64,000 nucleotides of DNA from Minisyncoccota bacterium (GTDB lineage: Bacteria > Patescibacteriota > Minisyncoccia > SW-4-49-11). Under the pieces are notes generated by a model, which was given only the letters and a program-made list of their open reading frames with translations, made no database searches and was not told where the DNA came from. Location of the stretch: NCBI GenBank assembly GCA_032117235.1, contig JAULZW010000012.1, positions 3,230-67,229 on the forward strand, given 5' to 3'. The translations under genes and the position numbers were made by a program. Numbering within the stretch: the stretch's first letter is position 1; each line of letters opens with the position of its first letter. Below are positions 23,778-54,244 of the stretch, in pieces.

Positions 23778-25280
<1,503 letters not shown>

Positions 25281-37593: not shown

Positions 37594-37735
37594 CAAGTAA
37601 TTTACCTGACGGTAAATTCTCGCTACCCCGTCTCGCCGTGTTCGCCTTGCGCATAGCACAAACTCACACATGGCTCCGACTTTCTCGTCCTGACTAAAGC
37701 CAATAAATTGGCTTTATCATTCTCTCGCTTCGCTG

Positions 37736-37806
37736 TTCGAATGCAGGGACTCGAACCCCAATTGCTGGTGCCAGAAACCAGTGTCCTACCGTTAGACGAC
37801 ATTCGA
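37736..37806 (-). tRNA. tRNA-Gln (anticodon CUG)
   Basis: Manual fold. Acceptor TCGAATG/CATTCGA with U1-A72. D-stem GTCT/GGAC with a GG loop. Anticodon stem CTGGT/ACCAG with loop TTCTGGC (CUG). T-arm TGGGG-TTCGAGT-CCCTG. CCA is not encoded. Confidence 0.7.
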
Positions 37807-42904: not shown

Positions 42905-43015
42905 GCCCTTGCGATGATCTACTTTCCCCACGAGGAGTATCATCGACTCACAGAGGCTTAACTTCTAGGTTCGGAATGTAACTAGGTGTACCCCTCTGTG
43001 ATAAATCACAAGGAC
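42905..43015 (-). rRNA. rrf: 5S ribosomal RNA
   Basis: The reverse complement gives GTCCTTGTGAT...CCGAACCTAGAAGTTAAGC...GGGAAAGTAGATCATCGCAAGGGC. It has the conserved CCGAAC..AGAAGTTAAGC loop-C region and a terminal helix I. Confidence 0.85.
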
Positions 43016-43126: not shown

Positions 43127-46135
<3,009 letters not shown>

Positions 46136-47047: not shown

Positions 47048-47431
47048 CTACTTTATTTTCAATATATGCTCTTGTTCTTCTATGACTTGTTCAATCATAA
47101 TATCTACACTAGATAATTCTTTTAGAATTTCATCATCAGTAAATCTCATTACTCTAAATCCTAGTTTTTCCAATCGATTTTGCCTAATACTATCATTGTT
47201 GGCTATTTCAATATGATTATGACTTTCTCCATCTACTTCTATGATGAGATGCAATTCTAAACACACAAAATCTACTATATATTGATCAATAACTCTTTGT
47301 CTACGGAATTTATGTCTTGTTTTAACCCCTTTCAAAATATATTTCCATAAACAAACTTCTGCCTTTGTCATCTCTTTTTTTAATGTATCAGCAATAGGTT
47401 TGAGTTGTATATTATAATGATGGTTTGGCAT
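47048..47431 (-). CDS. DUF559 (Vsr-like endonuclease fold) domain protein, second copy
   Basis: KFRRQRVIDQYIVDFVCLELHLIIEVDGESHN...RLEKLGFRVMRF matches the DUF559 consensus closely. Confidence 0.7.
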   Translation of the reverse strand: MPNHHYNIQLKPIADTLKKEMTKAEVCLWKYILKGVKTRHKFRRQRVIDQYIVDFVCLELHLIIEVDGESHNHIEIANNDSIRQNRLEKLGFRVMRFTDDEILKELSSVDIMIEQVIEEQEHILKIK

Positions 47432-47662: not shown

Positions 47663-48454
47663 TTAATCTTTCCAACTATTATGTAGTGGTATTATATTTT
47701 TTAACTCTATTATCTCTTTATCACAATCTTTTAGATCATCTTCCCAACAAATAATAACATCATATTGATATTGAGGTTTATAGATACCCTCTCGTGTATA
47801 TGAGGACTTATATGTGGAGTAGAAAACTGTTCCCTCTTTTTGTGCTGAAAAAATCCTATCAAACACACTTAAGAACATATCCCTAATCCGCTTATCTGAA
47901 ATTGATTTAATGAATTCTTTATTTCTTAATAGACTACAAAATAGTTGCACACTATTTCTCATTACAACATCAATATATTCTAGAAGAGGAACAGAATCCT
48001 CTTTATATCTATTAATATTCGCTTCTGTAGTTAAGTTATCATATTGAGATAAATTTATTTTCCATTTGTTAAATAAATTTTTCACCTCTATGGTATCTTG
48101 ATAAATTCCTAAGATTAATTGCTTATCAAGATCAGATATATTCCAATTAGATAACATCTGTATATCAATTAATTTCTCAAGAACAGCAATACGAGGAGAA
48201 AATTTAGGATCATGGATATAAGGATCTTGAATATTTAGGTTATTATTATATGATTTTTCAATTGATGTAATAAAATTCATATTTTCCCATATCTCTATTA
48301 CCAAAGTAGTTTCAAAAAAATGCTGCAACTTTTCACGCTGTTTACGATCTTTATGTAAAGGGATTACAAGTCCAAATATTGCAATAATTAATCCGAGGAT
48401 ATTAATTAGATTATTTTGAATAGAGCAATTAATAACATCTATAAGATTATTCAT
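47663..48454 (-). CDS. Hypothetical protein with an N-terminal TM helix. Last gene of the putative defence operon
   Basis: 263 aa. A TM helix at residues about 15-35, then a soluble domain with no recognised motif. Lies 5 nt downstream of the DUF262-HNH gene. Confidence 0.45.
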   Translation of the reverse strand: MNNLIDVINCSIQNNLINILGLIIAIFGLVIPLHKDRKQREKLQHFFETTLVIEIWENMNFITSIEKSYNNNLNIQDPYIHDPKFSPRIAVLEKLIDIQMLSNWNISDLDKQLILGIYQDTIEVKNLFNKWKINLSQYDNLTTEANINRYKEDSVPLLEYIDVVMRNSVQLFCSLLRNKEFIKSISDKRIRDMFLSVFDRIFSAQKEGTVFYSTYKSSYTREGIYKPQYQYDVIICWEDDLKDCDKEIIELKNIIPLHNSWKD

Positions 48455-48459
48455 CCCAC

Positions 48460-49662
48460 CTACCGATTTCCCTTTGCTCTATTATGTGTCTTACATAACA
48501 TCTGACAATTCTTGATATCCGTTGCACCACCTTTACTCCAAGCAGTGATATGATCGGCGTCCATATCAGCTAAGCTCCAAATTTTATCTTTGTTGGCGTC
48601 ATTCCCGATCGTACAAAGAGGACAATTGGATATTCCTTTGCTTTTGGCTTCTTCTGTCTGTGTAGCATAGACGGATTTTTTAATTGCCTCATCAAAAATT
48701 CTAACATCAAGTAATTTAGTATCGATTGAACCTCCCAAGATATATTCAAATATTCCTTTACGGTTTTTGACATACGGATCGGCATAGAGTTGATGTACCT
48801 TGGCTGATACTTCACTAGGATTATAAGCTGTTTTATGATACATCTCATATAATCTCCCCCATTCGAGTCCCCGCATTTCAGATTCTACATCAATGAATAC
48901 TCCAGACACCCAATCAATCACGGTATTGAAGTATGTTTTGAGTTCAGCAATATTGTTATCATAGCGATGACGGCTCATATAGTCTCCAATATTTCCTTTA
49001 CTTACCCAATCAAGAGCTCTCTCAAGGAATTCCTGTCTATTGGCACTTCCTGAGATATAGGCTGACCATTTTTGGATATTTGCATTTTGGGTATTACTAA
49101 ATTCTTCTTTCCCAAGTGTAATAAAAGGTCCAGAATATACCGCATTCAATAATTCCTGATTATTAAGCGGAACTCCAGCGATATTGATAGTTCTGAACCA
49201 TTCCTTAATCTCACTTTCTGTCCCTTCACATTCATAAATCAAGAGTTTTGTCTCAAGGATTTTGGTTTGTTTATCCTCGGCAATTCCACTAAAATACTGC
49301 TCCATTCCATTCTCATCTTTAACCGCAAATTTATTGGTTACATATCGTCCAATACTGGTAATTCTCTGCTGTCCATCTAATACCTCAAAGTTATCTGTAC
49401 CAACGGTATTAAAATATATCAATCCCAAAGGATACCCCTTGAGAATAGATTCTATGACAGCTACATCTCGTTTCCCGTCAGCATAAATATAATTCCGCTG
49501 ATATTCTGGCTGAATAGTAAGTTTCCCCGCAAGTCCGAATAGCCCTTTTCCCTCTAGTTCATTGTATACAAAGCCATCACAAATATCTCGCACCATAATG
49601 TCTGTTCTCAATATTGTCTTCATATTATTTCTTCTTAATAGTATTTTTGAGCTTTTTGCCAA
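48460..49662 (-). CDS. DUF262 (ParB-like NTP-binding) plus C-terminal HNH nuclease. A GmrSD-like, type IV restriction-like enzyme
   Basis: [10 protein letters not shown] and LDGQQRITS are the DUF262 signatures. The C-terminus CPLC...[29 protein letters not shown] is an HNH/His-Me finger. The annotated start is a TTG. An alternative ATG lies at 49623. Confidence 0.7.
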
Positions 49663-50593
49663 GAGCTTTGATACTGTCTAAATATTCTTTTTCTACTGGA
49701 GATAATGTCTTTGCTTGATATTTGCGATATTCTTGTATGACTTTTTCTTGAGCTTTTTTATTACTTATTGTACCTGAATTTTTGAGTATTCCCTTACCAA
49801 AATTATCAGAGAACTTATCCAACTCCCTCATCCAGTCTTCCATACGCATTTCTTGATGTTCTTGAGCTTTGATTTCGGCTAAATCAAAGAAAGCCGATAC
49901 CAGCCGATTCAGACGAAACAGCTCCTCCTCAGTCAAATAATTTTTGGCTATACTTACATCAGACAATGTTGGGATAGCTCCAGCAAATGTAGTCAATCCC
50001 ATAAAATCTTTGGTCGCATCCGCTCGACTATACATTGTTTCAGCAGCAGTATGGGCATTGGTAGCATAATGTAATTTATTTTGTACAATCTTAAAGAATG
50101 TTACCGAAGTTTTACTTTTGGGATTATAATCCATACTTGTAGCATAGAGATCTAGTACTTGTCGATAGAGAGCTTTTTCACTACTGCGAATATCTCGAAT
50201 TCGATTCAGAAGTTCCTTCCAATATCTACCTCCACCGGTTTCTTTGAGCCTCTCATCATCCATCACATATCCTTTGATAATATATTCACGAATTTGACGA
50301 GTTGCCCATTGACGAAAACGGGTACCTTGTACAGAACTCACACGATAACCAACGGATATAATGACATCTAAATTATAATAATTAGTCGGCTTGGTAGAAA
50401 AATCGGAATTTCCGATTTTTCTACTGGTATCTTCTGGAGCTAACTCTTCTTCCTTATAAATATTCAAAATATGTTCATTGATAGTAGATCGACTTTTATT
50501 GAATAGTTGTGCCATTTGTTCAATACTCAACCATACCGTCTCATCTTGTAATTTCACCTGAATAGCTGGCTGACCATTGGCATTCTCATACAT
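49625..50593 (-). CDS. RhuM-family (Virulence_RhuM, PF13310) protein
   Basis: [45 protein letters not shown] is the RhuM hallmark. The ATG at 50593 is preceded by AAAGGTGAG. The ORF caller's longer N-terminus would overlap the methyltransferase. Confidence 0.65.
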
Positions 50594-50630
50594 AATAATC
50601 TCACCTTTGATATCTTTATCTTGCATAGAT

Positions 50631-51773
50631 TTATCGCTTATGTTTAATAAGTACTCGAGCATAAGGAACTTCAACTAGTCCATTTTTTATCATATATAAA
50701 TCACCATCCACTACCCCTCTTTTTTGAACCTCTTTACGATATTTTCTATGTTCTGGTTTATAAGGTCTTACTCCTATCGATAACCCCAAATTAGCTATTC
50801 CCAATCCGATAATCTCAAATTGCTCAGGACTATATTTATCTAAGAAACTTATCGGCACTCCCATTATTCCATCATAATCACTGGGGATGGCATTAGTATA
50901 TGGGATTTCTATGGCATCATAATTATCATATTTCTGATAACTATTTGGGTTAGTCTGAACCTTATTATTAAAGCGTTTATTATCCTCCATAGACATCAAG
51001 GGTAGGAGTTGATGTCTTTTGCCATGATCAATATTAGTAAACCAGCGAACACCTTTAACCCGAATATATCTTTTTCCAGCTTCATCAATTCTCCAACCAG
51101 CTGATTCTAAAGGATAACTTTCAGGAACTTCAAACTCCCTATCTCCACTCGAAATACTTTGTCCTAACCACATTTTATTTTCTTTAATCAAGGGGAAAAT
51201 TTCTTTATAGGTAATAGCATTCATATTCCCAATAACCACAAATTGCTTGTTAACTTCAGTAATCCATTCTAAAAATTCTCGGAATAAGGAAAAAGGCGGA
51301 TTGGTAATAATAATATCTGCCTCATCTCGCAATTTCTTGATCTCATCACTTCTGAAGTCTCCATCCCCTTTGAGATATTGCCATTCTAAATCTTCGACAT
51401 TGACTTTCCCTTCTCCTGTCTTATCTTGGGTTAAAGTGAAGATTTTCCCATTTTTGGCGGTTTTCTTTTTATCATATTGAGGGCTTGATTGTTCGAATAA
51501 GCTCGGTTGATAGATTTCTTTTAGATGTTTGCTTTCGGCAGCATAGCTAGTGCTAATTAGTTTTTTGAGTCCAAATTCTTGGAACTTTTGAGCAAAAAAC
51601 TTAGTAAAATTACTCCATTCTGGATCATCACAAGGAAGTAAAATAGTTTTATCTCGGAATATATCAGGATTATATTCTAAATAGGCAGATATTTCTTTTT
51701 CAATATCATGATATTGTGTATAAAATTCATCATTTTTTGCATTCTTTGCCCTTGTTAGATTGCTATTTGCCAT
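50631..51773 (-). CDS. N6-adenine DNA methyltransferase, EcoRI-methylase family (gamma-class, NPPF)
   Basis: The N-terminal NDEFYTQYHDIEKEI...DKTILLPCDDPEWSNFTKFF...GLKKLIS and the catalytic IIITNPPFSLFREFL closely match remembered M.EcoRI segments (SDEFYTQY...; TNPPFSLFREY). Confidence 0.7.
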   Translation of the reverse strand: MANSNLTRAKNAKNDEFYTQYHDIEKEISAYLEYNPDIFRDKTILLPCDDPEWSNFTKFFAQKFQEFGLKKLISTSYAAESKHLKEIYQPSLFEQSSPQYDKKKTAKNGKIFTLTQDKTGEGKVNVEDLEWQYLKGDGDFRSDEIKKLRDEADIIITNPPFSLFREFLEWITEVNKQFVVIGNMNAITYKEIFPLIKENKMWLGQSISSGDREFEVPESYPLESAGWRIDEAGKRYIRVKGVRWFTNIDHGKRHQLLPLMSMEDNKRFNNKVQTNPNSYQKYDNYDAIEIPYTNAIPSDYDGIMGVPISFLDKYSPEQFEIIGLGIANLGLSIGVRPYKPEHRKYRKEVQKRGVVDGDLYMIKNGLVEVPYARVLIKHKR

Positions 51774-51912
51774 ATTCTATTATTGTAATATATATTCATT
51801 ATATCATCTCCTAAGCTATTTGTTAAATATAAAAGACATTACGTAAGTGTATATTTAATAGTGAGAGATTGTTTTTTCATATTATTGATTAAATATTTAT
51901 ATTATACCATCT

Positions 51913-52579: not shown

Positions 52580-54244
52580 ATGATGAAAGAAAAAATTAAG
52601 CCTATTTATTGTTTTCTTATCGTCACGATTTTTATTTTCCACTACAAGATAGGGATTACTAATGTCATTCCAACCAATGTAGACTGGCTACTACAAGCAG
52701 CGGATTGGCCTCAACATTATTTAGGATGGGAGTTTTTTAGACGGACACCATGGGGTTATCCTCTGGGTGAATTTAGTAATTTATTATATCCAGTTGCAAC
52801 TAATATTGGTTTTACAGATAGTATTCCACTTTTAGCAATTAGCCTCAAATTATTCAATCTAGTTTTACCAGATTTCTTTCAATACATCGGGCTATGGATA
52901 TTTATAAATATATTATTGCAAGCATACCTAGGTTATCTAATTTTTAGAAAACTGAATTTTTCAATAATGGCAGCAACCAGTGCTGGAATCATAATGCAAC
53001 TAACTCCAGCTCTAATTGCAAGATTAAATCATCCCGCCCTCACAGCACATTGGCTGATTTTACTAGCCATATATAATTATCTTAGTTTCGAGAGTAAAAA
53101 AAAGGATATTTATCTAAATTTTTTAGCTATTATATTGAGTAGCTTGATTCACCCTTATTTAGCAATTATGATAATTCCTATTAGTTTAGCTAATTTGTGG
53201 AGATTTAAATCTTGGCCAAAAATTATAATTTTGACAATTGTAGGACTAATAATACCTATTATACTTTGGGCTGGGATTGGTTATTTTGTAGATTATTCTA
53301 TTGGGGATCCTCAGAATTTAGGTTATTATTCTACAAGCTTACAATCTTTTTTTAATCCAGAATATGCAATATGGGATAATCATCTCAAAGATGCCTCATT
53401 GTGGCTAGATTCAAGAGGAATAAGATATCCATCTCAATATGAAGGATTTGCCTATCTTGGATTAGGAGTATTATCTGGCATAATTCTAACAATAGCAATG
53501 CTATTAATAAAAACCACTATTCACACCGAAGAATCACTCTTAACTATTAAAACTATCGCCGTATCATTATCAAAGGAAAGAAAAATATTTTTTATCATCT
53601 GTATTATACTTATTTCACTGTATTCTATTATACACAAAGATAATGTGACATATTTAGAACAGTATAATAATATCCTAATTATTGATATGTTTTTAGAAAA
53701 ATCTGGAGTAATCCGAGCGAATGGTAGATTTATATGGCCACTTATGTATATAGTTATTATTATAACCCTATATGGTATACAAAAAATATTCAAGAAACAT
53801 ACATTTTATATACTAACCATACTTGCACTAATTCAAGTAGTTGATATCACTCCCCTCATAAAAGAACGTCTATTTAGGGATCAGGAGTTTGTATCTATAA
53901 AGTCAGAATCTAGTATATTTTGGAAAAACACTATTAAAGATTATAAGGCTGTCAATATATACCCAGGGGGACAGAGAAGCTATAATCGAGCTGATGATTA
54001 TATTATATTTGCATTTTGGGCGGCTCAGAATAATATTCCAATCAATGCTGGTTATTTATCCAGATACGATATTGAAATCTCCAGAAAATTCAATCTAGAA
54101 CTAGAAAAAAACCTAAACAACAATAATCTAGATAAAAATAGTTTATATATCACCACCAAAGATTATAAAACACTATTCCAAAATATAAGCCAAAATACAA
54201 GCCGAGAATTAGTAGAATATGACAATTATTATATTTTGAAATAA
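52580..54244 (+). CDS. Large polytopic membrane protein. Possible GT-C-like glycosyltransferase
   Basis: 554 aa with more than 10 TM helices and a conserved N-terminal DWLLQAADWPQHYLGWEFFRRTPWGYPLG loop. The family is uncertain. Confidence 0.3.
   Translation: MMKEKIKPIYCFLIVTIFIFHYKIGITNVIPTNVDWLLQAADWPQHYLGWEFFRRTPWGYPLGEFSNLLYPVATNIGFTDSIPLLAISLKLFNLVLPDFFQYIGLWIFINILLQAYLGYLIFRKLNFSIMAATSAGIIMQLTPALIARLNHPALTAHWLILLAIYNYLSFESKKKDIYLNFLAIILSSLIHPYLAIMIIPISLANLWRFKSWPKIIILTIVGLIIPIILWAGIGYFVDYSIGDPQNLGYYSTSLQSFFNPEYAIWDNHLKDASLWLDSRGIRYPSQYEGFAYLGLGVLSGIILTIAMLLIKTTIHTEESLLTIKTIAVSLSKERKIFFIICIILISLYSIIHKDNVTYLEQYNNILIIDMFLEKSGVIRANGRFIWPLMYIVIIITLYGIQKIFKKHTFYILTILALIQVVDITPLIKERLFRDQEFVSIKSESSIFWKNTIKDYKAVNIYPGGQRSYNRADDYIIFAFWAAQNNIPINAGYLSRYDIEISRKFNLELEKNLNNNNLDKNSLYITTKDYKTLFQNISQNTSRELVEYDNYYILK

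Follow-up and report, generated by a model that had tools for sequence, protein, structure and literature searches.

Defence genes embedded in larger systems have been described for Hma, bacteriophage exclusion (BREX), defence island system associated with restriction-modification (DISARM) and type I restriction-modification (R-M) loci, work that is also the source of the PDC and HEC candidates in PADLOC (Payne et al. 2024, bioRxiv 10.1101/2024.01.29.577857). TgvAB lies inside a type I operon (PMC11411939), and RhuM is found embedded in R-M operons in place of Doc toxins (PMC3710099). A single PDC-S05/RhuM gene gave E. coli about 1000-fold protection against T7 and T5 (bioRxiv 10.1101/2024.09.26.614923), and cleavage modulated by nucleoside triphosphates (NTPs) is established for GmrSD and BrxU (PMC12707154). 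Here we analyze four co-directional open reading frames (ORFs) at 47663-51773, on the minus strand of a 64,000-nucleotide stretch of Minisyncoccota bacterium contig JAULZW010000012.1 (the window, meaning the whole stretch). They encode, in order, an EcoRI-family N6-adenine DNA methyltransferase (M), a RhuM-family protein, a DUF262-HNH nuclease (R) and a membrane-anchored protein (ORF4) (Table 1). The reading we favor, with a probability of about 0.78, is that M and R form a mobile, type II-style R-M cassette of two genes, to which RhuM and ORF4 have been added as two independent passengers.

Is R the restriction partner of M? M matches the Pfam family EcoRI_methylase over its full length (PF13651, 2.1e-132, 1-345/345) and the PADLOC model MTase_II (5e-98). 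Its catalytic motif, NPPF at residues 158-161 (window 51291-51302), has the (N/D)PP(F/Y/W) form of the S-adenosylmethionine-dependent methyltransferase expected in a type II system. R combines GmrSD_N/DUF262 (PF03235, 9.5e-22) with an HNH nuclease domain (PF01844, 4.3e-08); DUF1524 (PF07510) gave no match in R at E<=0.01, the nuclease region being matched by the HNH families PF01844 and PF14279 only. In PADLOC, R matches REase_II, "Type II restriction enzyme" (PDLC03418), end to end (1.6e-86, 5-371/372). We take the MTase_II and REase_II models to derive from REBASE reference enzymes. None of the residues that stay invariant among homologs down to 29% identity has been lost from R: QPEYQR, DGQQR, CPxC and the D-H...N...N series are all present. 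Compared with orthologs in L005, one of the closest related loci, the ratio of nonsynonymous to synonymous substitution rates (dN/dS) is 0.21 for M and 0.05 for R, the latter denoting very strong purifying selection.

R has homologs in more than 8000 protein clusters, many of them 82-85% identical in Cloacimonas, Spirochaetota, Bacteroidota, Chloroflexota and candidate phyla radiation (CPR) phyla, and matches in at least 593 species-representative genomes. We surveyed the 80 loci closest to the window R among these, mapping the four window proteins by tblastn, and counted spacings in those 65 whose sequence extends 1.3 kb or more 5' of R. M lies upstream of R in 64 of the 65, abutting it in 54 and separated from it by an insert in 10, and is absent in one. 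Abutting genes are typically 2-14 nt apart or overlap. All four plasmids inspected, from Enterococcus faecium, Arthrobacter, Pediococcus and Rhodococcus, carry M directly 5' of or overlapping R; the plasmid M is annotated 'adenine-specific methyltransferase EcoRI family protein', and equivalents of RhuM and ORF4 are absent from all four. Because M and R homologs are coupled across loci and plasmids, the conserved, selectable unit is the two-gene M-to-R cassette. It is highly mobile and conserved across many phyla and plasmids. It appears to be a type II-style cassette, and R is probably the cognate restriction endonuclease of M. The REase_II match and the linkage of the two genes together give the separate, methyltransferase-linked endonuclease gene that characterizes type II R-M.

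An earlier sequence-only reading of this DNA had made the same domain assignments, and the Pfam matches to M, R and RhuM (below) uphold them. Its view of methylation as a mark of self, with restriction left to the DUF262-HNH protein, is also retained here. That reading further held that M was not part of a classical type II pair. Given the coupling of M to R and the REase_II match, its premise of a methylase lacking a partner endonuclease was wrong. Its assignment of R to type IV restriction of the GmrSD/BrxU/SspE kind corresponds to an alternative in which R is a modification-dependent nuclease merely beside an unrelated or orphan methyltransferase. R does share with GmrSD, BrxU and SspE an N-terminal DUF262 domain with DGQQR, and it weakly matches the PADLOC models HEC-05/06. 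We nevertheless consider this alternative extremely unlikely. The nuclease domain is PF01844 HNH rather than DUF1524, the REase_II score far exceeds that of HEC-05 (1e-4), and M stands 5' of R in nearly every surveyed locus and on the four plasmids, where type IV enzymes have no cognate methyltransferase. An enzyme strictly coupled to a methyltransferase would moreover be self-toxic under type IV logic, unless the marks made and recognized differ.

M is consistently the less conserved of the two proteins (median pairwise identity 63%, versus 81% for R). We considered the swapping of M lineages against a constant R and rejected it, since identities among M proteins form a continuum and rise with those of R (Spearman 0.39); the gap appears to fit a difference in rate. 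The C-terminal part of M is variable (window 50657-50810, residues ~322-372): many homologs align only up to residue ~323, and over this segment the window differs from L005 although the flanks are ~90% identical at the DNA level, which suggests either mosaic M genes or a variable subdomain. In the RhuM-less relatives discussed below, a 160-aa gene for a methylated-DNA-protein-cysteine methyltransferase DNA-binding domain protein (PF01035, Ogt/ATL-like) overlaps the start of M, and may be another accessory, in a 5' slot. A second, very divergent DUF262-HNH paralog of 451 aa (29% identity) lies directly 3' of the conserved R in L079.

RhuM matches the Virulence_RhuM domain over its full length (PF13310, 1.7e-99) and the candidate single-gene defence model PDC-S05 in PADLOC (5.6e-142, 5-327/330). 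How it came to lie between M and R can be read at base level from related genomes. Four loci share the neighborhood of the window: SBP_bac_5, SecG, holin_4_2 and Ferric_reduct flank the region at one end, and 23S rRNA, 96-99% identical, flanks it at the other. In the syntenic CPR relatives L006-L008, which have neither RhuM nor ORF4, the order is M-TAA-ATCT-ATG-R: M ends in ...CATAAGCGATAA, ATCT follows, and R begins with ATGAAGACA. In the window, the identical ...CATAAGCGATAA-ATCT-ATG opens RhuM (ATGCAAGAT...) instead, and at the other end RhuM closes with ...AAATAA-T-ATGAAGACA, which restores the R start. Window positions 50656-50616 align to the M/R junction of L008 at 90%. As the junction sequences are identical to those of the RhuM-less relatives, RhuM was inserted exactly into the 4-nt spacer between the M stop and the R start. 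It thereby took over the upstream coupling signal, and it supplied a TAA-T-ATG for R.

The closest relatives, L005 and its database twin L009 (R 94% identical), carry a clean ~653-bp deletion corresponding to window 50300-49648, which leaves a 112-aa RhuM stump; M, R and an ORF4 homolog are intact. With RhuM absent in L006-L008 and reduced to a stump in L005/L009, it has been gained and lost without loss of M-R. Elsewhere RhuM keeps similar company: its plasmid homologs overlap or abut type I hsdM. An unrelated RhuM (42% identity to that of the window) lies ~195 nt 5' of M in L070, a Prolixibacteraceae metagenome-assembled genome (MAG), and is an independent association of RhuM with the same cassette at another position. 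The window copy also contains a perfect 14-bp inverted repeat (Table 1), identical in L005/L009 while neighboring bases vary. As RNA it folds at -18.3 kcal/mol (z = -5.9; none of 200 shuffles was equally stable). The hairpin is too long for chance, and RNA stability, attenuation or a recombination site are possible explanations.

Could the four genes nonetheless form a single machine? The spacing invites the thought. The mechanical ORF call had over-extended RhuM and R to TTG starts; homolog lengths (387 aa for R) and base-level junction alignments place the ATG codons at 50626 for RhuM and 49623 for R. The gaps then become 4 nt between M and RhuM, 1 nt between RhuM and R and 5 nt between R and ORF4, with no overlaps. 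A promoter-like site 5' of M is the top sigma70-like match of the 5.9-kb region (11/12); the match is to consensus only, and its function is predicted. Scanning the same region revealed no convincing minus-strand terminator between the four genes. The site is presumably the operon promoter. The sequence-only reading took such packing as a sign that methyltransferase, RhuM, nuclease and membrane protein are obligate parts of one undescribed defence system. The tight packing it described stands; the overlaps within its 5-37-nt range of gaps and overlaps came from the over-extended starts. Its observation that RhuM recurs inside R-M loci agrees with the hsdM neighbors of plasmid homologs and with the literature (PMC3710099), and ORF4 is, as it said, a 263-aa transmembrane protein with no known domain. 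The idea of a four-part system has fared poorly, and we regard it as very unlikely. Outside the window, the survey showed the four-gene order only in L005/L009, in decayed form; M abuts R in 54 of the 65 loci; and L006-L008, syntenic with the window, do without RhuM and ORF4. The slot between M and R holds unrelated defence genes in other genomes, as described below, and ORF4 relatives are found apart from the other three genes. The genes are thus not conserved together in homologous clusters, and the cluster matches a described system through the type II R-M models. RhuM and ORF4 appear to be confined to the window's own lineage.

ORF4 has no match in Pfam, PADLOC or NCBIfam (nor did NCBIfam give a useful match for M or R). 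Its dN/dS against L005 is 0.37, a sign of purifying selection and hence of a real gene. It has one strongly hydrophobic N-terminal segment (residues 16-33, Kyte-Doolittle 2.4). Its predicted fold comprises an N-terminal hydrophobic helix, a helical bundle and a small C-terminal beta-sheet (AlphaFold2 predicted local distance difference test score, 91.4); structure comparison returned only generic 4-helix-bundle matches. A word-indexed search found 3 close homologs and an exhaustive profile search 37 clusters of ~250 aa, 22 of them at E<=1e-10. At the N-terminus, members have one hydrophobic helix, or in some cases two; the shared motifs ELWxNxNF, HxPxxxPR, MxNM, YKSS, CWxNDW and IELK..LHxSWK follow. 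No Pfam family matches these proteins. Where the context of relatives is visible they are stand-alone genes without M, R or RhuM as neighbors; this comes from exact look-ups, mostly on ~1-kb contigs, a profile-based locus search having failed for lack of a conserved block. One relative lies beside DUF559 and HicA (L092), and another (L095, L096) has a reverse transcriptase, a resolvase and DUF3800 in its vicinity. ORF4 also differs from its neighbors in GC content (26.6% versus 34-38% for M, RhuM and R) and, unlike RhuM and R, has its own Shine-Dalgarno sequence, AGGTGG. It is probably best described as a lineage-specific passenger in a slot 3' of R. Position alone suggests it as a candidate defence or accessory gene.

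The spacer that received RhuM has received other genes in other genomes. Among the 10 loci with an insert between M and R, one is L009 with its RhuM stump, one (L065) has an insert without an ORF, and eight carry co-directional ORFs, including Bro-N/PDC-S13, DUF2130, OLD-family ATPase-TOPRIM nucleases, T5orf172/PDC-S57, SoFic and a cyclic oligonucleotide-based antiphage signaling system (CBASS) pair (Table 1). Cargo usually starts 1-5 nt past the M stop (23 nt in L010, 18 nt in L040) and ends in ...TAAT-ATG at R in about half of the ORF-bearing insert loci. In L065, L010, L054 and L021 a copy of the junction sequence stands at each end of the insert; the duplications in the last three are shorter. 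The L065 insert, 353 nt long and lacking any ORF of at least 100 aa, lies between 54-nt direct repeats of the 5' end of R (score 70, shuffle maximum 36) and resembles a scar left when cargo was inserted or excised; the window itself has no flanking direct repeat as an insertion signature. RhuM is likewise a variable gene between two core genes, as embedded genes are, and its host here is a two-gene type II pair, not Hma, BREX, DISARM or type I R-M. On this comparison of loci, the M/R junction behaves as a cargo slot. A variable position also lies directly 3' of R (Table 1).

Two of these loci deserve mention in their own right. In L040, a Moraniibacteria MAG, a complete CBASS pair and SoFic are all co-directional between M and R, so that three defence modules are nested in a two-gene R-M system. 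In L083, SoFic shares the space between M and R with a 201-aa protein that is hydrophobic near its N-terminus and matches nothing in Pfam or PADLOC; by its embedding this protein is another defence candidate.

A more ambitious reading is that the M/R spacer and the 3' flank of R serve specifically for the docking of defence cargo, which junction-duplicating recombination would bring in. R might also be mechanistically new, a restriction enzyme that is blocked by modification and works with a ParB-like NTPase or clamp domain. We hold this to be possible but doubtful. Were it true, 'guilt-by-embedding' would be valid for type II pairs, and the 37-cluster family of ORF4, DUF2130 and the 201-aa transmembrane protein of L083 would be nominated as new defence genes.

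What, then, might RhuM do in this operon? PrrC and EcoPrrI provide a precedent for a toxin held latent by an R-M system. RhuM, and perhaps ORF4, could be wired to the R-M pair in the same way, latent until a phage inhibits restriction and then acting as a toxin or abortive-infection effector. Such a guard or back-up role would suit the preserved translational coupling of the RhuM insertion within the operon and the many unrelated toxin-like or Abi-like genes that occupy the same slot, and RhuM has been proposed as a toxin in multilevel R-M defence (PMC3710099). M-R persists, however, with RhuM deleted (L005/L009) or absent (L006-L008); the cargoes include self-sufficient systems such as a CBASS cyclase with its effector, SoFic and Old; and a PDC-S05 gene protected E. 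coli on its own (bioRxiv 10.1101/2024.09.26.614923). We therefore think a guard role unlikely and prefer to see RhuM as an independent passenger.

Several points weigh against the favored reading. RhuM is coupled translationally into the operon, which would suit functional cooperation, and its loss in relatives shows that it is dispensable for persistence of the cassette, which is not proof of functional independence. Co-transcription rests on spacing and a consensus promoter only, and the survey took only the 80 R-nearest of at least 593 loci. A classical type II enzyme is Mg-only and would not be expected to have a DUF262 NTPase domain: the invariant DGQQR/QPEYQR ParB-like NTPase signature makes NTP involvement plausible where Mg2+ alone should suffice, so that 'type II' may be a classification of convenience. 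Literature searches yielded no biochemical evidence for any member of the R family, literature and PDB sequence searches with R, M and RhuM did not lead to the REBASE prototype behind PDLC03418, and the PDB search with R found no relative. Palindrome counts are only suggestive: CATG is the most depleted 4-mer palindrome in the window (49 observed versus 111 expected, ratio 0.44, z -5.9), followed here by GATC (126 versus 200, ratio 0.63, z -5.2), with GAATTC mildly low (15 versus 25 expected). Depletion of CATG and GATC is a possible footprint of past or present R-M systems; as a guide to the target site it was rejected, the depletion not being attributable to the window M-R.

If the locus is an R-M cassette with passengers, its operation can be outlined. 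All four genes would be transcribed as a single message from the promoter 5' of M. Since transcription starts upstream of M, M would be made before R. M would methylate the adenine of a short target in host DNA, and R, translated after M by coupling, would cut unmarked DNA through its HNH active site; NTP binding or hydrolysis by the ParB/GmrS-type DGQQR domain may be required for, or may stimulate, cleavage. RhuM would be an autonomous single-gene defence or toxin module of the PDC-S05 type, hitch-hiking on the R-M operon and co-expressed with it, a role resembling that of PrrC, Fic/Doc and RhuM embedded in type I R-M operons. ORF4 would be a membrane-anchored, lineage-specific passenger.

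The setting is a low-GC bacterial chromosome (32% GC in the window) whose nearest database relatives are labeled Parcubacteria, Saccharibacteria or Patescibacteria MAGs. The rRNA operon is unlinked, 16S lying ~18 kb from 23S and 5S, and a single tRNA is found in the 64 kb; together with the GC content this fits a CPR/Patescibacteria genome. A DUF559 gene (Vsr-like endonuclease fold) downstream of ORF4 and a gene for a 554-aa multi-pass membrane protein upstream of the cassette have no counterparts here in syntenic relatives, and the interval from Ferric_reduct to 23S rRNA is a variable region throughout.

Table 1. Coordinates of the genes and features discussed; positions refer to the window unless a surveyed locus (L) or protein residues (aa) are named.
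Feature	Position	Strand	Detail
M	50631-51773	-	EcoRI-family N6-adenine DNA methyltransferase, 380 aa
RhuM	49625-50626	-	RhuM-family protein, 333 aa
R	48460-49623	-	DUF262 and C-terminal zinc-finger HNH nuclease, 387 aa
ORF4	47663-48454	-	membrane-anchored protein, 263 aa
M-stop/RhuM-start junction	50624-50633	-	TAA-ATCT-ATG, same as M-stop/R-start of L006-L008; left insertion border
RhuM-stop/R-start junction	49621-49627	-	TAA-T-ATG, restoring translational coupling to R; right insertion border
Promoter-like site	51798-51826	-	TTAACA-17-TATAAT, TG extended -10; 25 nt 5' of M ATG
Perfect 14-bp inverted repeat, 3-nt loop	50394-50424	.	GTAGAAAAATCGGA-AAT-TCCGATTTTTCTAC, inside RhuM ORF
R DUF262 motif QPEYQR	aa 38-43		ParB/GmrS-like NTPase fold
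R DUF262 motif DGQQR	aa 83-87		ParB/GmrS-like NTPase fold
R HNH zinc-finger motifs	aa 334-337, 357-358, 372, 381		CPLC, DH, N, N
16S rRNA	23779-25279
5S rRNA	42906-43013
23S rRNA	43128-46135
tRNA Gln-CTG	37735-37806
DUF559 gene	47048-47431
554-aa membrane protein gene	52580-54244
PF01035 gene	L006:6504-6986, L007:3275-3757, L008:1706-2188		RhuM-less relatives; absent from window
Second RhuM	L070:3726-4694		5' of M
Second DUF262-HNH paralog	L079:7221-8576		3' of R
CBASS pair and SoFic	L040:2868-5689		between M and R
201-aa protein	L083:4028-4633		between M and R
ORF-less insert	L065:1593-1947		between M and R
Bro-N/PDC-S13	L010, L022, L054		M/R spacer; 1.8e-112
DUF2130	L010, L039		M/R spacer
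OLD-family ATPase-TOPRIM nucleases	L039, L063		M/R spacer
T5orf172/PDC-S57	L021		M/R spacer
SoFic	L040, L083		M/R spacer; 1.4e-115 (L040), 1.5e-104 (L083)
CBASS pair	L040		M/R spacer; oligonucleotide cyclase (3.6e-85) and Cap15 2TM effector
DUF2130	L018, L036, L055		directly 3' of R
Old	L051		directly 3' of R
PDC-S06	L066		directly 3' of R
PD-T7-5-like protein	L063		directly 3' of R
Second DUF262-HNH paralog	L079		directly 3' of R
Unannotated ORFs			directly 3' of R

Judged by its PADLOC model matches, the locus would be expected to come out as 'RM type II' plus 'PDC-S05' in current tools. It would then be a type II R-M system with embedded defence cargo, not a new four-part system. Read in this way, it adds a type II pair to the known hosts of embedded defence genes, alongside type I R-M, BREX, DISARM and Hma. 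EcoRI-family methylases of at least several hundred species would then have the ParB-like DUF262-HNH protein as their cognate nuclease, conserved at ~80% identity across phyla. A short M/R spacer that repeatedly takes unrelated defence genes with coupling kept would offer a cheap way to nominate defence candidates, and ORF4 defines a small, confidently foldable, unannotated membrane-protein family in such a slot.

How does the locus compare with the systems already known? Like classical type II systems such as EcoRI, it has a methylase of the M.EcoRI family (PF13651) and separate, adjacent, co-oriented M and R genes that are mobile and occur on plasmids, and both proteins are matched by the corresponding PADLOC type II models. 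Unlike EcoRI, the window R is not a PD-(D/E)XK enzyme but joins a ParB/DUF262 NTPase fold to HNH, and NTP may be required or stimulatory; R is also more conserved than M here, the reverse of the usual pattern in classical type II systems. With GmrSD, BrxU, SspE and TgvB, R shares an N-terminal DUF262 domain with DGQQR and a C-terminal nuclease of the His-Me-finger type. In that family of type IV or PT-dependent nucleases the nuclease domain is DUF1524, the substrate is modified DNA and a cognate methyltransferase is lacking, whereas R has a PF01844 HNH domain with a CxxC zinc finger and appears obligately coupled to an N6-methyladenine methyltransferase. As with embedded defence genes elsewhere, RhuM, SoFic, OLD, PDC-S13, PDC-S57 and CBASS lie co-directional between core genes, and the cargo varies by genome. 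The differences from the embedded genes of Payne et al. 2024 lie in the host, a minimal two-gene type II pair outside the systems analyzed there, and in the insertion, which is at a single 1-14-nt M/R spacer with coupling kept and, in some loci, with junction duplications. RhuM itself is a full-length match to its family with no family-level difference detected from PDC-S05, and the window copy is distinguished by the conserved 14-bp perfect hairpin in its coding region.

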